DNA of 64,000 bases. It comes from Solirubrobacterales bacterium (GTDB lineage: Bacteria; Actinomycetota; Thermoleophilia; Solirubrobacterales; 70-9). Of the stretch, positions 41,284-53,032 are shown in pieces. Numbering within the stretch: position 1 is the first letter of the stretch; each line of letters opens with the position of its first letter. The position numbers and the translations under genes are program-made. The notes below the pieces were generated by a model that was not told the origin of the DNA, ran no database searches, and saw only the letters and a list, made by a program, of their open reading frames with translations. The stretch covers positions 467 to 64,466 of the forward strand of contig JAJTCK010000002.1 in assembly GCA_021323175.1 (NCBI GenBank), written 5' to 3'.

Positions 41284-42123
41284 TCAACCGATGGCCATGA
41301 TCGCGATGACCGCCAGCAGGCCGAGCGGCGTCGCGTAGATGCTCATCCTCGAGAAAAGCCGCTCGAACGGGCCCCTGTACTTGACGCTCTCCATCAGGAT
41401 CAGCGCCACGACATGGGCGATGTTGATCAGGAAGAAGCCCCCGGCGATCAGGAACACCCACGTGCACGGCCCCACCTCGTCGCGGAACTCGTTCGCGGAG
41501 TGGCCCGTCGCGTCGGGGCAGGCGCTGGCCAGGATCAGCATCGCGATCGTGGCGAAGGCCCCGATCAGCAGGCCGAGGCCGTCGCGCGAGCGGATCGGAG
41601 GGAAGTTCTCCGAAAACCGCCTGCCCTCATCGGCGCGCTGGGCGCCGGCCGGAGCCATGCGGCGTTCGGCTACCTGCTCCCGCCCGTTCTGCGCGTGAAC
41701 GCGCAGTTCGGTGACGGGCGGGCTGACGTTGGCGCGCACGCGGTCCAGTAGCTGCTTCTCGCCGTAGACGGAGTCCTCTAGATCGGCGTGGTCCACCAGG
41801 ATGATCCGGCCGAAGTCGAACTTCTGAAGCTCGTCGCTGATGGCCTGCACGGGGTCGGAGTCCCCCACCTCTCCCCTCGCCTCGATGCCAGCGGCTCCAA
41901 GGGCCTGGAGCGAGCGCTCGAGCCGCTCGCGCGCCGGCGGGATCGCGTCGTCGACATCCCCCATGGTGTACTTCAGCGCCGAATCTACGAGGGCCGGCGC
42001 GACCACGAAGGCGCGCGCATCGCCGTCGCCGGCCGCGCGGCGGACCTCCTGGGCCACCGCCTCAGCGGCATCGTCGGTGATCGCCTCGGCGGTGACCACG
42101 AGCACGGGAAATCCCTCTGCCAT
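41284..42123 (-). CDS. Hypothetical protein: soluble alpha/beta N-domain (USP-like impression) plus 3 C-terminal TM helices
   Basis: ORF 41284..42123 in a GC3-rich frame. No catalytic motif recognised. C-terminal hydrophobic segments: LLIGAFATIAMLILA, WVFLIAGGFFLINIAHVVALILM, ATPLGLLAVIAIMAIG. Confidence 0.6.
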   Translation of the reverse strand: MAEGFPVLVVTAEAITDDAAEAVAQEVRRAAGDGDARAFVVAPALVDSALKYTMGDVDDAIPPARERLERSLQALGAAGIEARGEVGDSDPVQAISDELQKFDFGRIILVDHADLEDSVYGEKQLLDRVRANVSPPVTELRVHAQNGREQVAERRMAPAGAQRADEGRRFSENFPPIRSRDGLGLLIGAFATIAMLILASACPDATGHSANEFRDEVGPCTWVFLIAGGFFLINIAHVVALILMESVKYRGPFERLFSRMSIYATPLGLLAVIAIMAIG

Positions 42124-43254: not shown

Positions 43255-44670
43255 CTAGGTCCTCGTCGGCTGCCTGTCGGCCGGTGCTCCGCGCGCCCCG
43301 TTCGTGTGGGTCTCGTACTCGTCGGGGAGCTCCCAGAGGACATTGTCCAGGCCCTCGGCCTGGTGCTCGTCCGACACCCGCATCCCGAACGTCTTGTTGA
43401 AGATGAATCCCAGAACCGCCGCCGTGAGCATGCCTGCCCCGAAGCAGACCGCGATCCCGATCAGCTGCCACCAGAGCGTGATCTCGGCGTGCTGGAAGGC
43501 GTAGTCGCCCTCGGTGATGCCGAAGTAGCCGCCCTTGGCGGTCCCCCAATCGATCAGCCCGACCATGATCAGCCCATAGGTGCCGGCCGTGGCGAACACC
43601 GGGAGCAGCTTGTGATCGTCCACGTTCTTGCGGCCGAGGAACTCGTACACGGCGTACGAGAGGAACGGTGCGCCCGCGGAGACCAGGAACATCTGCCACG
43701 GCTCGTACACGTCCATCGCCGCCGCCCCCGCCACGTATCCGGCGAACGGGCCGAGCAGCAGGTAGCTGTACTTCCTGGTCCGGTAGGCGATGATCGCGCC
43801 GGTCAGCGCGCCGCCGGCCCACGAGAGGCCGTAGTTGTTGAACGCGATGCCGACGCTCGTGTCCGCCATCGTCACCGAGACGGCGAGCGCTTCGGGATCG
43901 AAGAAGAACAGGCACGACAGGATCACCATGGGCAGGCCCGCGAAGATCAGCAGCGCGCCTGTCGACAGAGTCCAGAGGTTGCCCGTGCGGTACTCGGCGA
44001 CCTTCGAATGCGCCTCGAACATGCCGGGTCGTTTGCCCAGCATGCGCACGAACACCAGTGCCATGCCAGCCGGGAACAGATAGACGAACCCGACTCCGAA
44101 GAAGTCGTGGAAGCCCTCGTTCGTGAGCGGTCCTACCGAGCCCCAGGTCAGGTAGCTCAGCAGCGAGGAAACGATCGTGGCCACGAAGCAGGTGATGAAG
44201 TAGGCCGAGGCCTTCATCCGCTCCGAGACCGCGAAGTGCAGCAGGATGTTCACGATTCCCGCGAACACCGCCAGGAAGAAGATGAAGATCTGGAAGTTGT
44301 TCAGGCCCGGGAAGACATCCGGTGACACGTTCTGTGCCAGGTCGTTGGCCAGCGTGCCGCCGAGCCACCAGTCTTCGATCGACTGGCCGAGCGGGTTCGC
44401 GACCTCGAAGGCATCGTTGTACTGCCAGTTCCAGAGCGCGAAGCCGATCCCGAAGTAGGTGGCGAACCCGATGAAGAAGCCGACGAGCTTCTCGATCGTG
44501 GAGTTGAACACGTTGAGACGTCTCACGCTGGCCGCGTCCAGCATCACGAGTCCGACCACGACCATCAGCGCTCCCACGGTTCCTGACGCATAGACGAGGT
44601 TCTGCGTCAGCATGTTCGTGGTCACCTGCTCGGGGAAGATCTCCCCGGCTTGGGCAAGCAAGTTCAGCAT
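43255..44670 (-). CDS. Divergent Amt/MEP/Rh-fold transporter lacking the twin-His pore motif
   Basis: ORF 43255..44670. Amt-like N-terminal LVMLDAASVRRLNVFNST (compare PG.A.FY.G.VR.KNV.N) and C-terminal EGLD motifs. By-eye alignment to E. coli AmtB puts Tyr at His168, Ala/Thr at His318, and no GWFGFN motif. GGAGAGG RBS. Confidence 0.7.
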   Translation of the reverse strand: MLNLLAQAGEIFPEQVTTNMLTQNLVYASGTVGALMVVVGLVMLDAASVRRLNVFNSTIEKLVGFFIGFATYFGIGFALWNWQYNDAFEVANPLGQSIEDWWLGGTLANDLAQNVSPDVFPGLNNFQIFIFFLAVFAGIVNILLHFAVSERMKASAYFITCFVATIVSSLLSYLTWGSVGPLTNEGFHDFFGVGFVYLFPAGMALVFVRMLGKRPGMFEAHSKVAEYRTGNLWTLSTGALLIFAGLPMVILSCLFFFDPEALAVSVTMADTSVGIAFNNYGLSWAGGALTGAIIAYRTRKYSYLLLGPFAGYVAGAAAMDVYEPWQMFLVSAGAPFLSYAVYEFLGRKNVDDHKLLPVFATAGTYGLIMVGLIDWGTAKGGYFGITEGDYAFQHAEITLWWQLIGIAVCFGAGMLTAAVLGFIFNKTFGMRVSDEHQAEGLDNVLWELPDEYETHTNGARGAPADRQPTRT

Positions 44671-44910
44671 GACCTCTCCTTTCGGATGGGCGTCCGGACT
44701 ACCGGCCGGTTGCCCACACGTGTCTCCCTCTGTTCCGAATTCGGGCTCTCACCCGTGAGGCGCGCTGGTTATACCCATTCGTTCAGCCGGAAGTCAAGTC
44801 GGAAATGCCACTATCTTCGAAAGGAAGGGAGTGCGACCTTTACTTCCGACCCAGGGTCAGGCAGAATCGATTTTTGTACAGATTTGTCCAGGAGGAGGGA
44901 GCGAGGCCGT

Positions 44911-46314
44911 ATGACCGAGAAGATGTGGGGGTCCGAGCCGTTCTGGGGGCTCGACTACGACTGGGATCCGGATTGGGTCCTGACCGACCGTCAGAAGGAG
45001 CTCCGCGAGACCCTGATCGGGCTCTGCGAGACCGAGATGCGGGCCAACGCGAAGCGCTCGGACGACGAGCTGCTCTACCCGCGCCGCAACTTCGAGCTCC
45101 TCGCCGAGAACGGCTTCCTCAGCCTGACCGTGCCCGAGGAGTACGGCGGCCTGGGCCAGAACCACGTCGGCTTCGCGATGGTCTGCGAGACGCTCGCCCG
45201 CTACGGCTGCGCCTCGACCGCGATGTGTTACGTGATGCACATCGGCGCGGTCGCGACGATCATGCTCCGCCCCACCGACGCGCTGGTCGACAAGTACATC
45301 CGCCCCCTCAACGAGGAGGTGCGAATCGGGACCCTCTCCTACTCGGATCCCGAGACCGGCTCACACTTCTGGTACCCCGTCAGCTCGAACGCCCAGAAGT
45401 CCAACGGCGGCTACAAGGTCAACAAGAAGGCGAGCTGGACGACCTCCGGCGGTTTCGCCGACTTCTACGTGGTGCAGACGACCAGCCCCGACTTCAGCGG
45501 ATACGACGACCTGTCCGTCTTCGTCATCGACGGCGACGACGTGCAGGCCCAGCCCTCGCTGTGGGACGCCCTCGGCTTGCGCGGCAACCAGTCCGGCCCG
45601 ATCCAGGTCGAGGACATCGAGATCCCCGACGACCAGGTCGTTGGCCCGCTCGGGGACGGCGCCAACTCCAACGACGAGGCGGTCGACCCCTGGTTCCTGG
45701 TGGGCTCGTCCTCGGTCTGGAACGGCATCACGCTCGGGGCGATCGACATCGCCAAGCGGCACACGACGCGCAAGAAGCACGTGGACGTCGGCATGCGGGT
45801 CGCGGACTACCCCACCATCCAGGACTACGTCGGCGAGGCAGTCATGGACACGAACGCCTGCCGGGTGTTCGTGTACTCGGTCGCACAGGCGATGGACAAG
45901 GCGACCGACGACAACACCAGGGTCCTGAAGCCGGGCGAGACCGCCCGCGCCGACTATCTCCACTGGGCGTGGCAGATCAAGTTCGAGGCGGCCAAGAACA
46001 CCGCACACCACGTGGACAAGATGCTGCACGCATGCGGCGGGTCCGGGTACAAGAAGGACATGGAGCTGGAGCGCTACGTGCGCGACGCGAAAGCCGGATG
46101 GGTGATGGGGCCGACCAACGAGGTGCTGCGCCAGTTCGTCGGCAAGGCGGTCCTGAACGGGTTCGATTCGCTCGACTACTGGAACCAGACCTACAACCGC
46201 CGCGTCGTGGAGAACGAGGTCAAGAAGCTCGACTCGACCGCCAAGCGAGAGCTGGCCGAGCAGCTCGTCGAGCAAGCTGACAAGGCCGAGGGCACCGAGC
46301 CGGCGAAGGCCTAG
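44911..46314 (+). CDS. Acyl-CoA dehydrogenase-fold flavoprotein (possible two-component flavin-dependent oxygenase)
   Basis: ORF 44650..46314 trimmed to ATG 44911 (MTEKMWGSEP). ACAD-like segments FLSLTVPEEYGGLG, KKASWTTSGG, GGSGY..RYVRDAK. The MCAD Y-E-G-T catalytic-Glu position reads M-G-P-T. About 40-aa charged C-terminal tail. Confidence 0.8.
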   Translation: MTEKMWGSEPFWGLDYDWDPDWVLTDRQKELRETLIGLCETEMRANAKRSDDELLYPRRNFELLAENGFLSLTVPEEYGGLGQNHVGFAMVCETLARYGCASTAMCYVMHIGAVATIMLRPTDALVDKYIRPLNEEVRIGTLSYSDPETGSHFWYPVSSNAQKSNGGYKVNKKASWTTSGGFADFYVVQTTSPDFSGYDDLSVFVIDGDDVQAQPSLWDALGLRGNQSGPIQVEDIEIPDDQVVGPLGDGANSNDEAVDPWFLVGSSSVWNGITLGAIDIAKRHTTRKKHVDVGMRVADYPTIQDYVGEAVMDTNACRVFVYSVAQAMDKATDDNTRVLKPGETARADYLHWAWQIKFEAAKNTAHHVDKMLHACGGSGYKKDMELERYVRDAKAGWVMGPTNEVLRQFVGKAVLNGFDSLDYWNQTYNRRVVENEVKKLDSTAKRELAEQLVEQADKAEGTEPAKA

Positions 46315-46318
46315 GACC

Positions 46319-48652
46319 ATGGCCGCCGCAACGCGCCCCGTCGTGATCGGCAATGGCCTGTTGCCGATCGACCGCTCGCTGGAGTCGCACTGGGTCCGCC
46401 CCGGTGCGGCTACCGCGGTGCGGCTGCGGCCTGACGACCTGCTCACGGTGTTGAACCGGGACGGCGGACAGATCGCCGAGCTCACCGTCCTCGACGCCGA
46501 GGGCGGCGAGGACGCCGCCGCGATCGGCGCCCGGGCCGACGGCGACGCGACGGTCCTCCGTGGGCTCTCGGGCAACGGGGGCGCCGAAGGGTTCCTTGGC
46601 CAGCTCCACACGAGCGGGCTGATCCCCGATGAGGCCAAGGCGCTGCGGCTGTTCGCCGCGGATACCCCTCGGGGCGCCACCGAGACATTCACGGTCGAGC
46701 GCGAGGCGACCGCGATCGTCGCCGCGCCGGGAGGCCGGGTGGTGGAAGGCGACTGGCCGGCATCGCCGCTGATGGTCGAGGTCAAGCGCGCGACGCCGCG
46801 TGCGTTCGACGAGGTCGAGCTGCCGCCGCCGCTGGCCGAGCCGCGGCTGGACTTCCGCGTCGACAAGGCGAGCGCACTCGCCTACGAGGTGCAGGCAGGC
46901 GAGTACATCCAGATCATCGACGTCCGGGGCAAGCAGTGCTCGGACTTCCTCGCGTTCAACCAGAGCAAGCTCGAGCGCGGCATCGAGCGCGGCCTGGACT
47001 CGACCACGACTCGCTCCCTGATGGGCTCGGCCTACCCGACCCCCGGCCTGTATCGCAAGAGCTTCGACATCGACCAGGACCCGCTGGTGGAGGTGGTCCA
47101 CGACACCGTCGGCCGCCACGACAACTTCGGGCTCGCCTGCTTCGCCAAGTACTACGAGGACCTGGGCTACCCGGGGCACGTCAACTGCAGCGACAACTTC
47201 AACGGGGAGCTGGTCCCGCGGGGGGTCGAGGCGCGGGCCGGATGGAACGCGCTCAACCTCTTCTACAACACCACCTTCGACACGGCCAACGCTCTGATCG
47301 CCGACGAACCGTGGTCACGGCCCGGCGACTACGTGCTGATGCGCGCTTCGAACCACCTGCTCTGCGCCTCATCCGCATGCCCCGACGACATCGACCCCGC
47401 CAACGGCTGGGAGATCACAGACATCCACGTCCGCGTGTACCGGCCCGAGAACCGGTTCTCGCTGGCGATCGCCCATCGCGTCACACCGGAGGCCGACCCC
47501 GTCATGACCAAAGAGACCGCCTTCCACGCCCGCACCTCCGCCCTGACGGGCGACATGGTCGAGTACCGGGGCTACTGGCTGCCCGACTGCTTCCCCGGCG
47601 AAGGGTCAATCGGCGAGTACTGGGCGTGTCGCGAGAAGGCGGTAATCATGGACCTCTCCCCGCTCCGCAAGTGGGAGGTCCTGGGCCCCGATGCGGAGAT
47701 GCTGATCCAGCGCGCGATCACACGCGACGCTCGCAAGCTGTCCGTGGGCCAGGTCACCTACACCGCGGTGTGCAACGAGACCGGCGGGATGCTCGACGAC
47801 GCCACCGTCTATCGCCTCGGCGACGACAACTTCCGCTTCGTGGCCGGGGACGAGTACACCGGCGTGCACCTGAACAAGCTCGCTGACACCGAGGGGCTGA
47901 AGGTCTTCGTGAAGCCCTCGACCGAGCAGCTTCACAACGTCGCCGTCCAGGGGCCCGAGAGCCGCGAGATCCTGAAGAAGATCGTGTGGACCCCGCCCGA
48001 CCAGCCGGCCCTCGAGGACCTGAAGTGGTTCCGCCTCCTGATCGGGCGGATCGGCGACTACGACGGCACGCCGATCGTCGTCTCGCGGACCGGCTACACC
48101 GGCGAGCTGGGATACGAGGTGTGGTGCCATCCCGACGACGGCCCCGCCGTCTGGGACGCGATCTGGAAGGCCGGCGAGGGACACGGGCTGCAGCCGCTCG
48201 GGCTGTCGGCGCTCGACATGCTCCGGATCGAATCCGGCCTGATCTTCGCGGGCTACGAGTTCGACGACCAGGTGGACCCGTTCGAGGCCGGGATCGGCTT
48301 TGCCGTGGCCCTGGACTCGGAGGACGACTTCGTCGGCAAGCAGGCTCTGATCGAGCGCTCCGAGCACCCCCAGCGCAGGCTGGTCGGCCTGGAGCTCGAG
48401 GGCCGGGAGACCGCTGGCCACGGCGACTGCGTGCACGTGCCCGGCGAGCGCGCCTCGGTCGGCGTCGTCACCAGCGGCACGCGCAGCCCGGTCCTGCGCA
48501 AGAACATCGCGCTCTGCCGGATGGCCGTCCAGCACACCGAGACCGGCACAGCGATCGAGGTCGGCAAGCTCGATGGGGAGCAGAAGCGAATTCCGGCGCA
48601 GGTCGTCCCGATCCCCTTCTATGACCCGAAGAAGGAGCGTCCGCGGTCATAG
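46319..48652 (+). CDS. DUF1989-like N-terminal region fused to a GcvT-type aminomethyltransferase/THF-binding domain (TMAO-demethylase-like architecture)
   Basis: ORF 46319..48652, 777 aa. The central region carries Cys residues (GLAC, HVNC, LLCASSAC). The C-terminal half has GcvT-like motifs (MDLSPLRKWEVLGPDA, SRTGYTGELGYEV, LDMLRIESGL). Start is 4 nt after the ACAD-fold stop. Confidence 0.8.
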   Translation: MAAATRPVVIGNGLLPIDRSLESHWVRPGAATAVRLRPDDLLTVLNRDGGQIAELTVLDAEGGEDAAAIGARADGDATVLRGLSGNGGAEGFLGQLHTSGLIPDEAKALRLFAADTPRGATETFTVEREATAIVAAPGGRVVEGDWPASPLMVEVKRATPRAFDEVELPPPLAEPRLDFRVDKASALAYEVQAGEYIQIIDVRGKQCSDFLAFNQSKLERGIERGLDSTTTRSLMGSAYPTPGLYRKSFDIDQDPLVEVVHDTVGRHDNFGLACFAKYYEDLGYPGHVNCSDNFNGELVPRGVEARAGWNALNLFYNTTFDTANALIADEPWSRPGDYVLMRASNHLLCASSACPDDIDPANGWEITDIHVRVYRPENRFSLAIAHRVTPEADPVMTKETAFHARTSALTGDMVEYRGYWLPDCFPGEGSIGEYWACREKAVIMDLSPLRKWEVLGPDAEMLIQRAITRDARKLSVGQVTYTAVCNETGGMLDDATVYRLGDDNFRFVAGDEYTGVHLNKLADTEGLKVFVKPSTEQLHNVAVQGPESREILKKIVWTPPDQPALEDLKWFRLLIGRIGDYDGTPIVVSRTGYTGELGYEVWCHPDDGPAVWDAIWKAGEGHGLQPLGLSALDMLRIESGLIFAGYEFDDQVDPFEAGIGFAVALDSEDDFVGKQALIERSEHPQRRLVGLELEGRETAGHGDCVHVPGERASVGVVTSGTRSPVLRKNIALCRMAVQHTETGTAIEVGKLDGEQKRIPAQVVPIPFYDPKKERPRS

Positions 48653-48658
48653 GCTTTC

Positions 48659-48726
48659 GGCCGTGAAGGTCAAGCGATTCACGGTCCTGCCGGGTCATGA
48701 CCCGGAGTTGCTCGGGCCGGGCCCGG
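48659..48726. terminator. Cluster of three GC-rich palindromes between convergent genes (putative bidirectional terminators)
   Basis: CCGTGAA-n10-TTCACGG (48661..48684), CGGGTCATGACCCG (48691..48704) and CCGGGCCCGG (48717..48726). Confidence 0.35.
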
Positions 48727-48733
48727 TCGCGCT

Positions 48734-49357
48734 CTAGGTCAACTCGGCGCCGGAGGCGAGGCCTCCGTACTGGCCGCCGTGGAACAGCAGGGGCTGGGCG
48801 TTCCCCTCGTAGCACGCATCCTCGACCCGCCCCAGGAAGAGGGAGTGATCGCCTCCCCAGTAGGACTTGGCGACCTTGCTGACGAACTGGGCGGCCGAAC
48901 CGGCGACTACCGGGGTCTCGTGGACGATTTCGAAACTGGGTTCGTCGCGGCCGTCCCCTGGCCTGCCGGCGAACTGGTCCGAGAGATCGCGCTGCCCGGC
49001 GGCGAGCACTGAGACGCCGAAGCGCTGTCCCTCGTAGAGCAGCGAGCACATCTTGGTGCGGCGGTCCACCGAGATCAGGACCAGCGGAGGCTCCAGGCTG
49101 ACGGACATGAAGGCGTTCGCGGTCATCCCGTGGACCTGGTCACCGACCTTCGTCGTGATCACTGTGACACCGGTGGCGAACATCCCGAGCGTCTGGCGCA
49201 GCGCCTTGGCGGGATCGTCGCCCTCGATCTCGAGGGCCGCCTCGTCGGATGGATCGGGCGGTCCCTGACCGATCCCGTCAGGACCCGTCCCGACCCAGGC
49301 CGCGACCTCGGCCAGCTTCAGGTCGAACTCGGGCGGCTGGGCGTCAGGCTCGGTCAC
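48734..49357 (-). CDS. HpaC-like NAD(P)H-flavin reductase (split-barrel flavin reductase domain)
   Basis: ORF 48734..49534. FATGVTVITT..HGMTANAFMSVSLEPPLVLISV..GDHSLFLGRV. The ORF's 5' end is the antisense of the tRNA gene, so the start was moved to GTG 49357 (GTG 49390 is an alternative). Confidence 0.82.
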   Translation of the reverse strand: MTEPDAQPPEFDLKLAEVAAWVGTGPDGIGQGPPDPSDEAALEIEGDDPAKALRQTLGMFATGVTVITTKVGDQVHGMTANAFMSVSLEPPLVLISVDRRTKMCSLLYEGQRFGVSVLAAGQRDLSDQFAGRPGDGRDEPSFEIVHETPVVAGSAAQFVSKVAKSYWGGDHSLFLGRVEDACYEGNAQPLLFHGGQYGGLASGAELT

Positions 49358-49431
49358 AGGTGCATTATCCCCCGTATCAAGCGCTCGCACGCCCAGTCCG
49401 TCCACGTTTCGCGAGTAACCTGACCAGGCTC

Positions 49432-49505
49432 GCGCCCGTAGCTCAGCTGGATAGAGCGCCGCCCTCCGGAGGCGGAGGCCACAGGTTCGAATCCTGTCGG
49501 GCGCG
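49432..49505 (+). tRNA. tRNA-Arg (anticodon CCG)
   Basis: Hand-folded cloverleaf: acceptor GCGCCCG/CGGGCGC, D-arm GCTC-AGCTGGATA-GAGC, anticodon stem CCGCC/GGCGG with loop CTCCGGA, T-arm ACAGG-TTCGAAT-CCTGT. 74 nt, with no encoded CCA. Confidence 0.93.
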
Positions 49506-49535
49506 CTGCGCCGCGTCGGCCTGGCGGAGCGCACC

Positions 49536-50507
49536 TCAGGCAGGAGCCGGCGCGCGCGCCTCGGGGTTGGCCCGGTACCACTCGATGGTCCGGCCGAGCC
49601 CCTCCCGCAGCTCGACCTGCGGTTTCCAGCCGGTCAACCCACGCAGCTTGGCCGAGTCCAGGAACTGGCGATCAATCTCGCCCCGCGGATTGCCCCTCCC
49701 GCGAAAGTCGGGCGTCACCTCGGCGCCGGCCACCTCGCACACCAACTCGACCACCTCGCCGACCGTGTTCGGCCGGCCCCACCCCGCATTGAACGCCTCA
49801 CCCCGGCCACGGCCGGCCGAGACGGCGTCGGCCACCGCCAGGTAGGCGGACGCGACGTCCTCGACGTACAGGAAGTCGCGCTCGGGGCTGCCGTCGGAGC
49901 GGATCACCGGACGGCGTCCTTCGAGCACCGCGCTGACCGCCTCGGGGACCAGCCGCGAGAAGTTGAGGTCCCCGCCTCCGTAGATGTTCGCGAACCGGGT
50001 GACGGCGACCGGCAGGCCGAACGAGTGCCAGTAGGACCTGGAGATCAGGTCCGCGGCGGCCTTGGACACGTCGTAGGGAAAGGCAGGCTCGAGCGCGGCG
50101 TCCTCGGTGTACGGAAGCGCCTCATGGCGGCCGTAGGCCTTGTCCGACGATGCCACCACCACGGTACCCACGTCCGCCGCACGAGCCGCCTCGAGCAGGT
50201 TCCACGTCCCCTCCACGTTGATCCGGAAGGTGGCCACCGGCGAGGCCATGGCATCGCCGACGATCGCTTGGGCCGCGAGATGGAAGACCACGTCCGGCGC
50301 GTGCGACGACACCACGGCGGACAGCCGCTCGGCGTCCCTGACGTCGGCCGCCTCCTGTCGCACATCCGTCTCGATCCCGAGCAGGGCGAGCCCCGACGGC
50401 CGGCCGGTCTGGCGATCGAGGCCGACGACCTCCTCTCCGCGCTCCAAAAGCGCCCGGGCGAGCCACGAGCCCCCGAAGCCGCGGGCCCCCGTGACTAGGG
50501 CCTTCAT
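49536..50507 (-). CDS. rfbG: NAD-dependent sugar-nucleotide 4,6-dehydratase (CDP-glucose 4,6-dehydratase-like SDR)
   Basis: ORF 49536..50507. VTGARGFGGSWL Rossmann motif and YDVSK catalytic motif. Adjacent to a cytidylyltransferase gene. Confidence 0.78.
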   Translation of the reverse strand: MKALVTGARGFGGSWLARALLERGEEVVGLDRQTGRPSGLALLGIETDVRQEAADVRDAERLSAVVSSHAPDVVFHLAAQAIVGDAMASPVATFRINVEGTWNLLEAARAADVGTVVVASSDKAYGRHEALPYTEDAALEPAFPYDVSKAAADLISRSYWHSFGLPVAVTRFANIYGGGDLNFSRLVPEAVSAVLEGRRPVIRSDGSPERDFLYVEDVASAYLAVADAVSAGRGRGEAFNAGWGRPNTVGEVVELVCEVAGAEVTPDFRGRGNPRGEIDRQFLDSAKLRGLTGWKPQVELREGLGRTIEWYRANPEARAPAPA

Positions 50508-51312: not shown

Positions 51313-51588
51313 TCACTCCCCGCCGGCGACCGCGGGCAGGATTGTGACCTCGTCGCCGTCGTTGACGGACGTCTCGAGACCGTCCTGAAAGCGGATGTCC
51401 TCGCCGTCGACGTAGACGTTGACGAAGCGGCGCAGGTCCCCGTCCTGTGTGATGCGCTCGCGCAGGCCGTCGTGCTGGTCGAAAACCGCGTCGAGCGCCT
51501 CGCCGACGGTGGACCCCTCCACCTCGAGCTCTCCCTCGCCGCCGGTGGCGGTTCGCAGCTGCGCTGGGATCTTCACGGTGATACTCAT
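51313..51588 (-). CDS. MoaD/ThiS-family sulfur-carrier protein (C-terminus ..AVAGG-E)
   Basis: ORF 51313..51588, 91 aa. Beta-grasp-like sequence ending in Gly-Gly followed by one extra Glu, checked codon by codon (GTC GCC GGC GGG GAG TGA). Confidence 0.8.
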   Translation of the reverse strand: MSITVKIPAQLRTATGGEGELEVEGSTVGEALDAVFDQHDGLRERITQDGDLRRFVNVYVDGEDIRFQDGLETSVNDGDEVTILPAVAGGE

Positions 51589-51612
51589 CTCAGCGGATCC
51601 TAATTCAGGCGG

Positions 51613-52845
51613 CTATGCGACGACCTCGGCCGCGAACTCCCTCTCGAAGTCCGCGAGCGTCGGGTCGATCTCGTGCATGCGGAACGATTCGCGTGCGGCG
51701 TCGAGCGTCTTCAGCCCCTCGCCCGTGATGTAGACGACGACTCGCTCGTCGCTGTCGATGTCACCGCGCCGCGCGAGCTTCTCCAGCACCCCCATCGTGA
51801 CCCCGCCTGCGGTCTCGGTGAAGATGCCGGTCGTCTCGGCGAGCAGGCGGATCCCCGCCGTGATCTCGTCGTCGGTGACGGATTCGATCGAGCCGCCGGT
51901 GCTGCGCGCGAGATCCAGTGCGTATGGACCGTCGGCGGGATCGCCGATCGCCAGGCTCTTCGCGATCGTGTCCGGCCGCTGCGGCTTGCAGACGCTCGTG
52001 CCGTCGGCGAAGGCCGTCGCGACCGGCGAGCAGCCCTCGGCCTGAGCCCCGCAAAACGTCGGCAGCTCACCCTCGACCAGGCCCAACTCCAGCCATTCGG
52101 TGATCCCGCGTCCAAGCTTGGTGAACATGGACCCCGAAGCGATCGGCCCGACTATCCGGTCGGGGATCTGCCAGCCGAGCTGCTCGATCGTCTCGTAGGC
52201 GAGGGTCTTGGAGCCCTCTGCGTAGTACGGGCGCAGGTTCACGTTGACGAACGCCCACGGCCGCTCGGCCGACAGCTCCGTGCAGAGCCTGTTGACGTCG
52301 TCGTAGTTGCCCCGGATCCCGACCAGGTTCGTCCCGTAGATCCCGGTCGCAAGCAGCTTCTGCTCCTCGAGGTCCGCGGGCACGAAGACGTAGGACGACA
52401 GGCCGGCGGCAGCGGCGTGCGCGGCCACGGCGTTCGCCAGGTTCCCGGTGGACGCGCAGGCGACCGTTTCGAACCCGAGCTCTTTGGCCTTGGCGACGGC
52501 GACGGCGACGACGCGGTCCTTGAACGAATGGGTCGGGTTCGCCGCGTCGTTCTTGATCCAGACCTCGCCCATTCCCAGCCGCTCGGCCAAGCGGTCTGCG
52601 CGAACCAGCGGGGTCAGCCCGGGCTCGAGCGGATCGCCGGGCCGCTCCCCCTCGAACGGGAGGAAGTCCGAGTACCGCCAGATACCGCGAGAGCCGGCTT
52701 GGATCTTGCGCTTGGCCTCCTCGGCGTCCATGCCCGAGTTGTCGTACGCGACCTCCAGCGGGCCGAAGCAGGTCTCGCAGAAGAAAGCGGCCCCGAGCTC
52801 GTAGCCCGCTCCGCACTCCTTGCAGTTGAGGGATCTGACAGCCAC
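51613..52845 (-). CDS. Threonine-synthase-family PLP enzyme with N-terminal zinc ribbon (candidate homocysteine synthase of MetM type)
   Basis: ORF 51613..53001 trimmed to GTG 52845, 9 nt after an AAGGAG RBS, because the upstream part is the riboswitch. CKECG..CETC ribbon and PLP-lysine motif NPTHSFKDRV. Confidence 0.85.
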   Translation of the reverse strand: MAVRSLNCKECGAGYELGAAFFCETCFGPLEVAYDNSGMDAEEAKRKIQAGSRGIWRYSDFLPFEGERPGDPLEPGLTPLVRADRLAERLGMGEVWIKNDAANPTHSFKDRVVAVAVAKAKELGFETVACASTGNLANAVAAHAAAAGLSSYVFVPADLEEQKLLATGIYGTNLVGIRGNYDDVNRLCTELSAERPWAFVNVNLRPYYAEGSKTLAYETIEQLGWQIPDRIVGPIASGSMFTKLGRGITEWLELGLVEGELPTFCGAQAEGCSPVATAFADGTSVCKPQRPDTIAKSLAIGDPADGPYALDLARSTGGSIESVTDDEITAGIRLLAETTGIFTETAGGVTMGVLEKLARRGDIDSDERVVVYITGEGLKTLDAARESFRMHEIDPTLADFEREFAAEVVA

Positions 52846-52865
52846 TCGAAGAATCTCCTTGGAAC

Positions 52866-53032
52866 GAAAAAACCTCCGCCTGGTCAGTGGGCGGAGGTTC
52901 CGGGAGGAAACTCTTCCCACATCTCCCAGGCCTGATGCGACGCCTGCTGGATTTGGCACCTCTCCTCGAACCGAAGTTCGAGGTGGTTGCCGGGGCTTCA
53001 TCGGGCCAGTCCCTCCACCCCTCTTGATGTGG
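52866..53032 (-). promoter_or_regulatory. SAM-I (S-box) riboswitch with intrinsic terminator expression platform
   Basis: Minus strand: CCACAUCAAGAGGGGUGGAGGGACUGGCCCGAUGAAGCCCCGGCAACC..GGUGCCAAAUCCAGCAG..GGGAGAUGUGG. The aptamer spans 52917..53032 with P1 CCACAUC/GAUGUGG. It is followed by AACCUCCGCC-CACUGACCA-GGCGGAGGUU plus a U5 run (52866..52899). Confidence 0.93.

Follow-up and report, generated by a model that had tools for sequence, protein, structure and literature searches.

In the canonical gene cluster for the use of methylated amines, tdm, which encodes trimethylamine N-oxide (TMAO) demethylase, stands with tmm and dmmDABC and is accompanied by mgsABC, gmaS, and mgdABCD (PMC11446756; PMC5520151). 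The step that follows Tdm is carried out by the dimethylamine monooxygenase DmmDABC (Ruegeria pomeroyi; PMC5520151), which proteobacteria encode in that cluster. A cryo-electron microscopy study of Paracoccus TDM (eLife 2026; PMC13619132) described a zinc site of three cysteines, a substrate pocket containing D220, F327, and D367, and a tetrahydrofolate (THF) site containing R480, F582, F672, and K782. The same work reports, from deletion experiments, that the N-terminal domain is required for assembly and solubility, and that known Tdm enzymes have Km values for TMAO of 1.3 to 3.9 mM. In Gram-positive methylotrophs surveyed in 2015, Tmm was present with no classical tdm adjoining it (PMC5023230). 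Here, we analyzed a stretch of 64,000 nucleotides (the window) from contig JAJTCK010000002.1 of a Solirubrobacterales bacterium, which carries a tdm gene directly behind a gene for a protein with the acyl-CoA dehydrogenase (ACAD) fold. We estimate a probability of about 0.8 that the tdm product is Tdm and that it is functionally linked to a two-component monooxygenase formed by this ACAD-fold partner, a claim that leaves the substrate of the partner outside.

The open reading frame (ORF) at 46319..48652 (+ strand, ATG start, 777 aa) had been singled out in a preliminary description as a fusion of DUF1989 and GcvT domains with the architecture and length of Tdm. The sequence motifs quoted there (SRTGYTGELGYEV, LDMLRIESGL, GLAC, HVNC, and LLCASSAC) are all found in the translation, and the proposed architecture was borne out by Pfam matches to DUF1989 (E = 5e-42), GCV_T (E = 3e-66), and GCV_T_C (E = 1e-17). 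Coding character is indicated by a G+C content at third codon positions (GC3) of 0.91 in a window of ~70% GC. Against NF053776, the NCBIfam equivalog for Tdm, the protein scored 1142.4 bits over profile positions 11 to 762 of 763, a narrow margin over the cutoff of 1100. The match to Paracoccus TDM (PDB 9q59) had an E value of 2.7e-263 and placed residues 20 to 777 on chain residues 31 to 787, with 52% identity over 753 aligned residues. The three-part architecture and similar length are shared with both Paracoccus TDM (PDB 9Q59, 9Q5A, and 9Q5L) and the Tdm of Methylocella silvestris (NF053776). The parts are an N-terminal domain (aa 1 to 180; 46319..46858, + strand), the DUF1989 catalytic core (aa 181 to 347 by Pfam; 46859..47359, + strand), and a GcvT-type THF domain (GCV_T at aa 403 to 662 and GCV_T_C at aa 686 to 769; 47525..48625, + strand). 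The first ~170 residues, for which the preliminary description had no assignment, are the N-terminal domain of Tdm, as the alignment with 9q59 starts at residue 20.

Alignment with the Paracoccus structure also located the putative functional residues. The zinc ligands C285, C301, and C365 correspond to C274 (47138-47140), C290 (47186-47188), and C354 (47378-47380); the pocket residues D220, F327, and D367 correspond to D209, Y316, and D356; and the THF-site residues R480, F582, F672, and K782 correspond to R469, F571, F661, and K772. Ligand C354 and D356 (47378-47386) lie just outside the Pfam boundary of the DUF1989 core. Four cysteines of the DUF1989 region had been named in the preliminary description. 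Three of them, in GLAC (C274), in HVNC (C290), and at the end of LLCASSAC (C354), are ligands by this alignment. The fourth, C349, is conserved as well, but its Paracoccus equivalent is not among the zinc ligands (PMC13619132). The three cysteines, two aspartates, and four THF-site residues were invariant in 64/64 actinobacterial Tdm sequences, while position 316 was Tyr in 49/64 and Phe in 15/64. The N-terminal domain is poorly conserved, and W476, which contacts this domain in Paracoccus, is replaced by Arg in the window protein. On the basis of the architecture, the equivalog cutoff, the match to 9q59, the retained zinc, substrate, and THF residues, and the methylated-amine genes that surround its relatives, we conclude that 46319..48652 encodes a full-length Tdm ortholog, an enzyme that is already known.

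Tdm proteins identical to that of the window are recorded in two Joint Genome Institute (JGI) metagenomes. The nearest genome loci belong to metagenome-assembled genomes (MAGs) of Solirubrobacterales, one of which (L047) is syntenic with the window and has a Tdm that is 88% identical. Thousands of homologs exist, at least 7,988 of 8,000 candidates having an E value of ≤1e-20, and each of the best 120 of these has the three-domain architecture and an identity of at least 71%. The tdm gene alone is therefore ordinary and adds little beyond an enzyme with a solved structure. What is new is its uncharacterized ACAD-fold neighbor, a putative two-component oxygenase.

The ACAD-fold gene (467 aa; 44911..46314, + strand) is preceded by a Shine-Dalgarno-like run, AGGAGGAGGGAG, 5' of its ATG, and its TAG stop lies 4 nt ahead of the tdm ATG on the same strand. 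On the far side of tdm and convergent with it is a gene for an HpaC/StyB-like flavin reductase of family PF01613 (48734..49357, - strand; 207 aa in the JGI gene call), the putative reductase component. The locus thus differs from those of Paracoccus and Methylocella both in its host, a Solirubrobacterales-like actinobacterium, and in its neighbor, which is a putative ACAD-fold oxygenase gene instead of tmm and dmmDABC. The preliminary description had noted the adjoining ACAD-fold gene, correctly, and had pointed to the absence of tmm and dmm beside tdm, which also holds. Neither was found in the 64 kb, where tmm was sought by tblastn and no reference Dmm sequence was searched directly.

The same description had regarded this setting as unusual for an actinobacterium. 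To view the neighborhood of tdm more widely, 80 genome loci (all Actinomycetota MAGs) were combined with metagenome loci to a total of 160, each inspected over 6 to 10 kb on either side of tdm; gene calls in these loci were crude and GC3 based, and the key statements rest on tblastn. Wherever a flank exists in the 80 genome loci, an ACAD-fold gene stands directly 5' of tdm, except in L078 and L081. Most metagenome loci have the same order, which brings the total to ~150 loci. Far from being rare, the ACAD-tdm pair is standard for the tdm loci of Thermoleophilia, Gaiellales, and their relatives among the Actinomycetota, and the attention drawn to the neighbor was well placed, as it is a conserved functional partner and not an incidental one. 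Across the genome loci, the partner is more conserved than Tdm itself, at 79 to 93% identity to the window protein versus 61 to 88% for Tdm. A reverse search that started from homologs of the ACAD-fold protein found tdm next in line wherever the contig was long enough. A member from Hyphomicrobiaceae, 62% identical, stands without tdm. Co-occurrence was counted only in loci with adequate flanks, and because the loci are related, Fisher tests on these counts overstate independence. By this count, the PF01613 flavin reductase was present in 68/75 loci with the ACAD-fold gene and in 0/14 loci without it.

The partner has the ACAD fold by Pfam and by structure prediction (AlphaFold2 pLDDT of 89.7; Foldseek TM score of 0.72 by query and 0.88 to 0.91 by target), and databases label it "acyl-CoA dehydrogenase family." An ordinary acyl-CoA dehydrogenase that happens to stand beside tdm would fit this label, and its top PDB and Foldseek matches are true ACADs. 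However, the protein fell below the cutoff of every NCBIfam ACAD equivalog, the best being Rv1679/FadE16 at 224 bits versus 600. The catalytic Glu of MCAD-type enzymes (E376 position) is G400, in the motif VMGPTN, and that of IVD-type enzymes (E254 position) is W261. In a 58-member alignment of the family, in which 75 columns are invariant and the C terminus is extended by ~50 residues, the MCAD-type position is G or A, and the IVD-type position is W, F, or Y. Invariant Trp and His residues of the partner (W154, W176, W218, W270, W352, H110, H152, and H290) are candidates for an amine-binding cage. With no Glu at either catalytic-base position, adjacency to tdm kept over ~150 loci in two phyla, a co-occurring flavin reductase, and relatives that are fused to a reductase, an ordinary dehydrogenase in an incidental position is extremely unlikely.

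An exhaustive search of 1.84 billion cluster representatives placed the partner in a compact core of sequences at least 62% identical to it, beneath which came a few full-length clusters at 36 to 45% and then generic ACADs at ≤~35%. In three of these outgroup clusters, the ACAD-fold domain is joined with an NAD(P)H reductase of the FNR type (FAD_binding_6 plus NAD_binding_1). Because the partner lacks a catalytic base, has an obligate reductase neighbor, and has relatives fused to reductases, we infer that it is not a dehydrogenase and serves as oxygenase component in a two-component flavin monooxygenase.

This assignment would place the partner beside the group D ACAD-fold two-component monooxygenases (DszC, SfnB, HsaA, 4-hydroxyphenylacetate [HPA] hydroxylase C2, the sulfonamide monooxygenase SadA/SadC, and DnmZ), which likewise have the ACAD fold, no catalytic Glu, and a separate PF01613-type reductase. 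Sequence matches to the group are weak (SfnB, 73 bits; HsaA, 67 bits; DszC, 49 bits; DnmZ, E = 9e-12). Unlike group D, the partner forms a tight family of its own and is closer in sequence to true ACADs than to any characterized oxygenase. No solved structure is more than ~25% identical, and the nearest ones are true ACADs (~22 to 25%). DnmZ is an amino-sugar N-oxygenase (nitrososynthase), so N-oxygenation is known among ACAD-fold oxygenases, and for a tertiary amine, it falls within ordinary flavin-hydroperoxide chemistry.

The distribution of Tmm bears on what the partner may do. Only two genome loci lack the ACAD-fold gene and the reductase, L078 (Euzebyaceae) and L081 (Acidimicrobiia), and in both, tdm is immediately followed by a true Tmm (787 bits against NF058570, whose cutoff is 675). 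With a true actinobacterial Tmm as the tblastn query, no Tmm was found in the window or in the 78 genome loci that contain the ACAD-fold gene. Across genome and metagenome loci, the latter from a scan seeded with Tmm-linked Tdm, 74 of those with adequate flanks had only the ACAD-fold gene, 7 had only Tmm, 1 had both, and 7 had neither. The islands share a common core of tdm, an IclR regulator, a DAO flavoprotein, an APC permease, and u141, a gene for a small conserved protein without a Pfam or NCBIfam match (L067:6415-6861) that was found in 33 loci and always adjoins the TMAO-permease-like APC transporter. What stands beside tdm in these islands is the ACAD-fold gene with its reductase, or Tmm, or neither; islands that are syntenic in other respects differ in this module alone. 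In a neighbor-joining tree of Tdm (no support values), the three states are interspersed, and loci with both modules fall between the Tmm clade and the ACAD clade. This near mutual exclusion, together with the interspersed states, favors nonorthologous replacement of Tmm. Tmm (NF058570) takes the same place beside tdm in similar islands and catalyzes the reaction that we propose for the partner, but the two have no kinship in sequence or fold. Tmm, a class B enzyme, works as one polypeptide with direct use of NADPH; the partner combines an ACAD fold with a separate flavin reductase. A cytochrome P450 was considered as a third module in the loci with neither and was rejected; L161 has it alongside Tmm, and a fragment of it comes after the ACAD-type locus L101.

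We therefore consider N-oxygenation of trimethylamine (TMA) to TMAO, in place of Tmm, to be the foremost candidate role for the partner, at slightly less than even odds. Several observations weigh against it. Three metagenome contigs (L115, L119, and L145) carry the ACAD-fold gene, tdm, and tmm in a row, which fits a nonredundant role better; strict complementarity of the ACAD-fold gene and Tmm, which had held in the 80 genome loci, is broken by these contigs, and the claim that the partner replaces Tmm was therefore weakened to a most likely replacement. For picocyanobacteria and the window alike, the module would end at dimethylamine (DMA) and yield no nitrogen unless genes elsewhere finish the pathway. 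Genes for tmm or dmm could also lie elsewhere in the genomes, as the view was limited to 6 to 10 kb on either side of tdm. The PDB fold search does not discriminate, since its scores for true ACADs are like those for an ACAD-fold monooxygenase. Finally, the pocket residue F327 of Paracoccus is Tyr here, although Tyr also occurs at this position in Tmm-linked Tdm.

The last point could mean that the Tdm-like enzyme and the oxygenase act on another tertiary amine or N-oxide, such as a dimethylalkylamine or a choline-derived amine. The bare margin over the NF053776 cutoff (1142 versus 1100) and a partner family without a characterized member would be in keeping with such a substrate. Nevertheless, the remaining pocket and zinc residues match the TMAO-bound structure exactly, both Tdm proteins that stand beside true Tmm (L078 and L081) also have Tyr at position 316, and the neighbors are C1 and methylamine genes (GmaS, MgsABC, Mgd, and FTHFS) rather than genes for longer carbon skeletons, so that we regard a different substrate as highly improbable.

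The contigs with ACAD-fold gene, tdm, and tmm in a row can be read as three successive steps, in which the partner and its reductase would act after Tdm as a DMA monooxygenase (DMA to methylamine and formaldehyde) that replaces DmmDABC, with TMAO entering by a permease. No Dmm-like NCBIfam or Pfam match was found among the recurrent neighbors of ~160 loci within 10 kb of tdm, although the search used no reference Dmm sequence as a query; this differs from the proteobacterial order tdm-tmm-dmmDABC (PMC11446756). Two neighbors, m1 and m2, were examined as possible Dmm subunits and rejected, m1 being an EamA transporter and m2 having no match. The ACAD-fold partner is itself unrelated to any Dmm subunit. 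Most ACAD-type islands also include a TMAO-permease-like APC transporter, found in 51/82 analyzed loci. The three contigs and the lack of a Dmm-like neighbor keep a DMA monooxygenase under consideration. Such a role, however, predicts no negative association with Tmm, which was present in 1/75 loci with the ACAD-fold gene versus 7/14 without it. It would also leave the loci with Tmm or with neither module lacking a DMA enzyme, yet these carry the same DAO flavoprotein as the ACAD-type loci. Moreover, by general flavoenzyme chemistry, hydroxylation of an unactivated methyl C-H bond is not a normal reaction of flavin hydroperoxides, so a route through N-hydroxylation would be required. We consider this role unlikely.

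The pair might also work iteratively, the oxygenase N-oxygenating TMA, DMA, and perhaps methylamine and Tdm removing one methyl group each time, so that TMA would be converted to ammonia and three methylene-THF. This would account for the window and the picocyanobacteria, whose minimal modules come with no further methylamine genes, as well as for the tight 1:1 coupling of the two genes across phyla, the adjoining Amt channels, and the occasional co-occurrence with Tmm. Zinc-assisted N-O cleavage of N,N-dimethylhydroxylamine to an imine may be analogous to the TMAO reaction. However, most islands keep the full N-methylglutamate pathway, so that at least the last step would be unneeded there, and there is no mention of Tdm activity on hydroxylamines in PMC12560246. 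Iteration strikes us as distinctly unlikely.

Returning to N-oxygenation of TMA as the preferred role, the steps would be as follows. The first gene of a two-gene operon would encode the ACAD-fold oxygenase, supplied with reduced flavin by the convergent PF01613 reductase, and this enzyme would convert TMA to TMAO in place of Tmm. The second gene, tdm, would encode the demethylase. The Zn(Cys)3 site in its DUF1989 core would bind the N-oxide oxygen of TMAO and promote conversion to DMA and formaldehyde, and the C-terminal GcvT domain would trap the formaldehyde in the form of 5,10-methylene-THF. We carry this mechanism over by homology from the Paracoccus structure. An Amt channel, the oxygenase, Tdm, and the reductase would together form a compact, Tmm-independent module that turns TMA into DMA and methylene-THF.

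The Amt-family channel of the window (471 aa; 43255..44670, - strand) is encoded divergently from the ACAD-tdm pair and scored 139 bits against TIGR00836, whose cutoff is 343; uptake of (methyl)amine or ammonium is a possible function. The 240 bp between the divergent genes (44671..44910) have a lower GC content than their surroundings and are presumed to be a regulatory region. No match to the sigma-70 consensus was found in 44671..44910, and scanning 44500..49600 for promoter and terminator consensus sequences gave no hit. The 81-bp convergent gap between tdm and the flavin reductase gene contains a perfect 16-nt palindrome, CCGGGTCATGACCCGG, at 48690..48705, and no T-tract terminator was found in the gap.

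The ACAD-tdm pair also occurs in Leptolyngbya sp. strain NK1-12 and in picocyanobacteria-like contigs, where the ACAD-fold protein is 65% and Tdm is 47 to 49% identical to that of the window. The cyanobacterial Tdm homologs are 607 to 619 aa long and lack the whole N-terminal domain (L170:9465-11324 and L171:9421-11244). After each cyanobacterial tdm comes a conserved ORF of 156 to 168 aa without a Pfam match, the pair being 39% identical. This ORF might substitute for the absent N-terminal domain of Tdm. It was also considered as a hidden flavin reductase, a candidacy that was dropped on finding no similarity to the reductase, to u141, or to a further neighbor gene, u148. The Leptolyngbya locus again has a divergent Amt, together with PhyH, GmaS, DAO, and MgsABC; this Amt holds the same position as that of the window, but it is unrelated, at 25% identity.

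The nearest outgroup of the partner family, the reductase fusions of ~770 aa (P0245, P0261, P0269, and P0391-P0454), comes from marine invertebrates. The hosts include a lobster, shrimps, crabs, crayfish, krill, barnacles, stomatopods, and amphipods, among them the hadal Hirondellea gigas, as well as Lingula, corals, the annelid Owenia, and a chiton. These animal proteins are 45% identical to the window partner and ~55% to the cyanobacterial ones, and they keep the invariant residues of the family. TMAO has been measured in crustaceans, with higher levels in hadal amphipods, and its synthesis has been credited to flavin-containing monooxygenases by analogy with vertebrates (PMC9511220). The fusions are candidates for self-sufficient amine oxygenases in animals that contain TMAO.

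In the window itself, the only genes linked to methylamines are those for Amt, the oxygenase, Tdm, and the reductase; no tmm, GmaS, Mgs, DAO, PhyH, or APC permease gene was found in the 64 kb. Other loci are larger methylated-amine islands in which GmaS, MgsA, MgsB, MgsC, SoxA/SoxB-type Mgd, the DAO flavoprotein, an IclR regulator, and FTHFS recur, often with PhyH and sometimes with serine-cycle-like genes or PRK/CbbR. PhyH, an Fe/2-oxoglutarate dioxygenase family, was found in 23/59 ACAD-type loci versus 0/10 loci of the Tmm type or with neither module, mostly right after tdm (e.g., L073:3750-4655), and the Leptolyngbya PhyH (L170:4149-5060) is 44% identical; a function as an N-demethylase for DMA is possible. 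The gene u148 (L033:19533-20018), which encodes another small conserved protein, was found in 21 loci, has no Pfam or NCBIfam match, and always follows MgsC. Some thermoleophilial loci, among them L010, L017, L039, and L054, include genes for phosphoribulokinase and CbbR, a malyl-CoA-lyase-like protein, a serine-glyoxylate-aminotransferase-like protein, and formate-THF ligase, which hints at C1 assimilation, methylotrophic or autotrophic, in these uncultured actinobacteria. In several actinobacterial loci, the flavin reductase beside tdm is fused to a cyclic-nucleotide-binding domain (PF01613 plus PF00027, 325 to 333 aa; L083:13113-14114, L084:11769-12746, and L085 to L087), which suggests that the supply of reduced flavin may be under cyclic nucleotide control. 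One locus filed as a MAG of Bifidobacterium breve (L022, CAMDBT010000005.1) holds a Thermoleophilia-type island, GmaS-MgsABC-APC permease-ACAD-tdm-reductase, with an ACAD-fold protein 84% identical to that of the window, and the bin is probably mislabeled or contaminated.

Housekeeping genes flank the module in the window. One flank contains pyrR, pyrB, and RNase Z, and the opposite flank comprises nucleotide-sugar genes together with a ThiS/PALP pair. In this pair (51313..53001, - strand), a ThiS-like small protein (PF02597, from a JGI call on an identical contig) is encoded directly upstream of a PALP enzyme that matches the threonine synthase equivalog TIGR00260 (280 bits versus a cutoff of 167); the pairing is similar to thiocarboxylate-dependent biosynthesis of the CysO/CysM type. 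Between pyrR and RNase Z lies a 279-aa ORF (41284..42123, - strand) with a coding-type GC3 of 0.90. No Pfam or NCBIfam family matches it, and its conservation extends to the identical metagenome contig alone and not to the syntenic L047.

In the searchable full-text literature, which leaves most subscription journals outside, we found no description of the ACAD-tdm pairing. Tentatively, and at odds modestly against it, we propose that the ACAD-fold protein and its reductase represent a new family of methylated-amine N-oxygenases, a second, nonhomologous TMA monooxygenase feeding Tdm in abundant soil Actinomycetota (Thermoleophilia and Gaiellales) and cyanobacteria; the animal fusions would then be candidate self-sufficient TMAO synthases. 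Methylated amines are a significant pool of nitrogen and one-carbon units and are precursors of climate-active aerosols, and the organisms that consume them are surveyed by means of tmm, tdm, and dmm as marker genes. If the ACAD-fold enzyme oxidizes TMA or DMA, such surveys overlook some cyanobacteria as well as Thermoleophilia and Gaiellales, and the partner gene is mislabeled as an acyl-CoA dehydrogenase by annotation pipelines. The partner family is compact and strongly conserved and lends itself to easy expression, which makes the question directly testable. For marine invertebrates, the reductase fusions would open the question of how animals make TMAO as an osmolyte and piezolyte.

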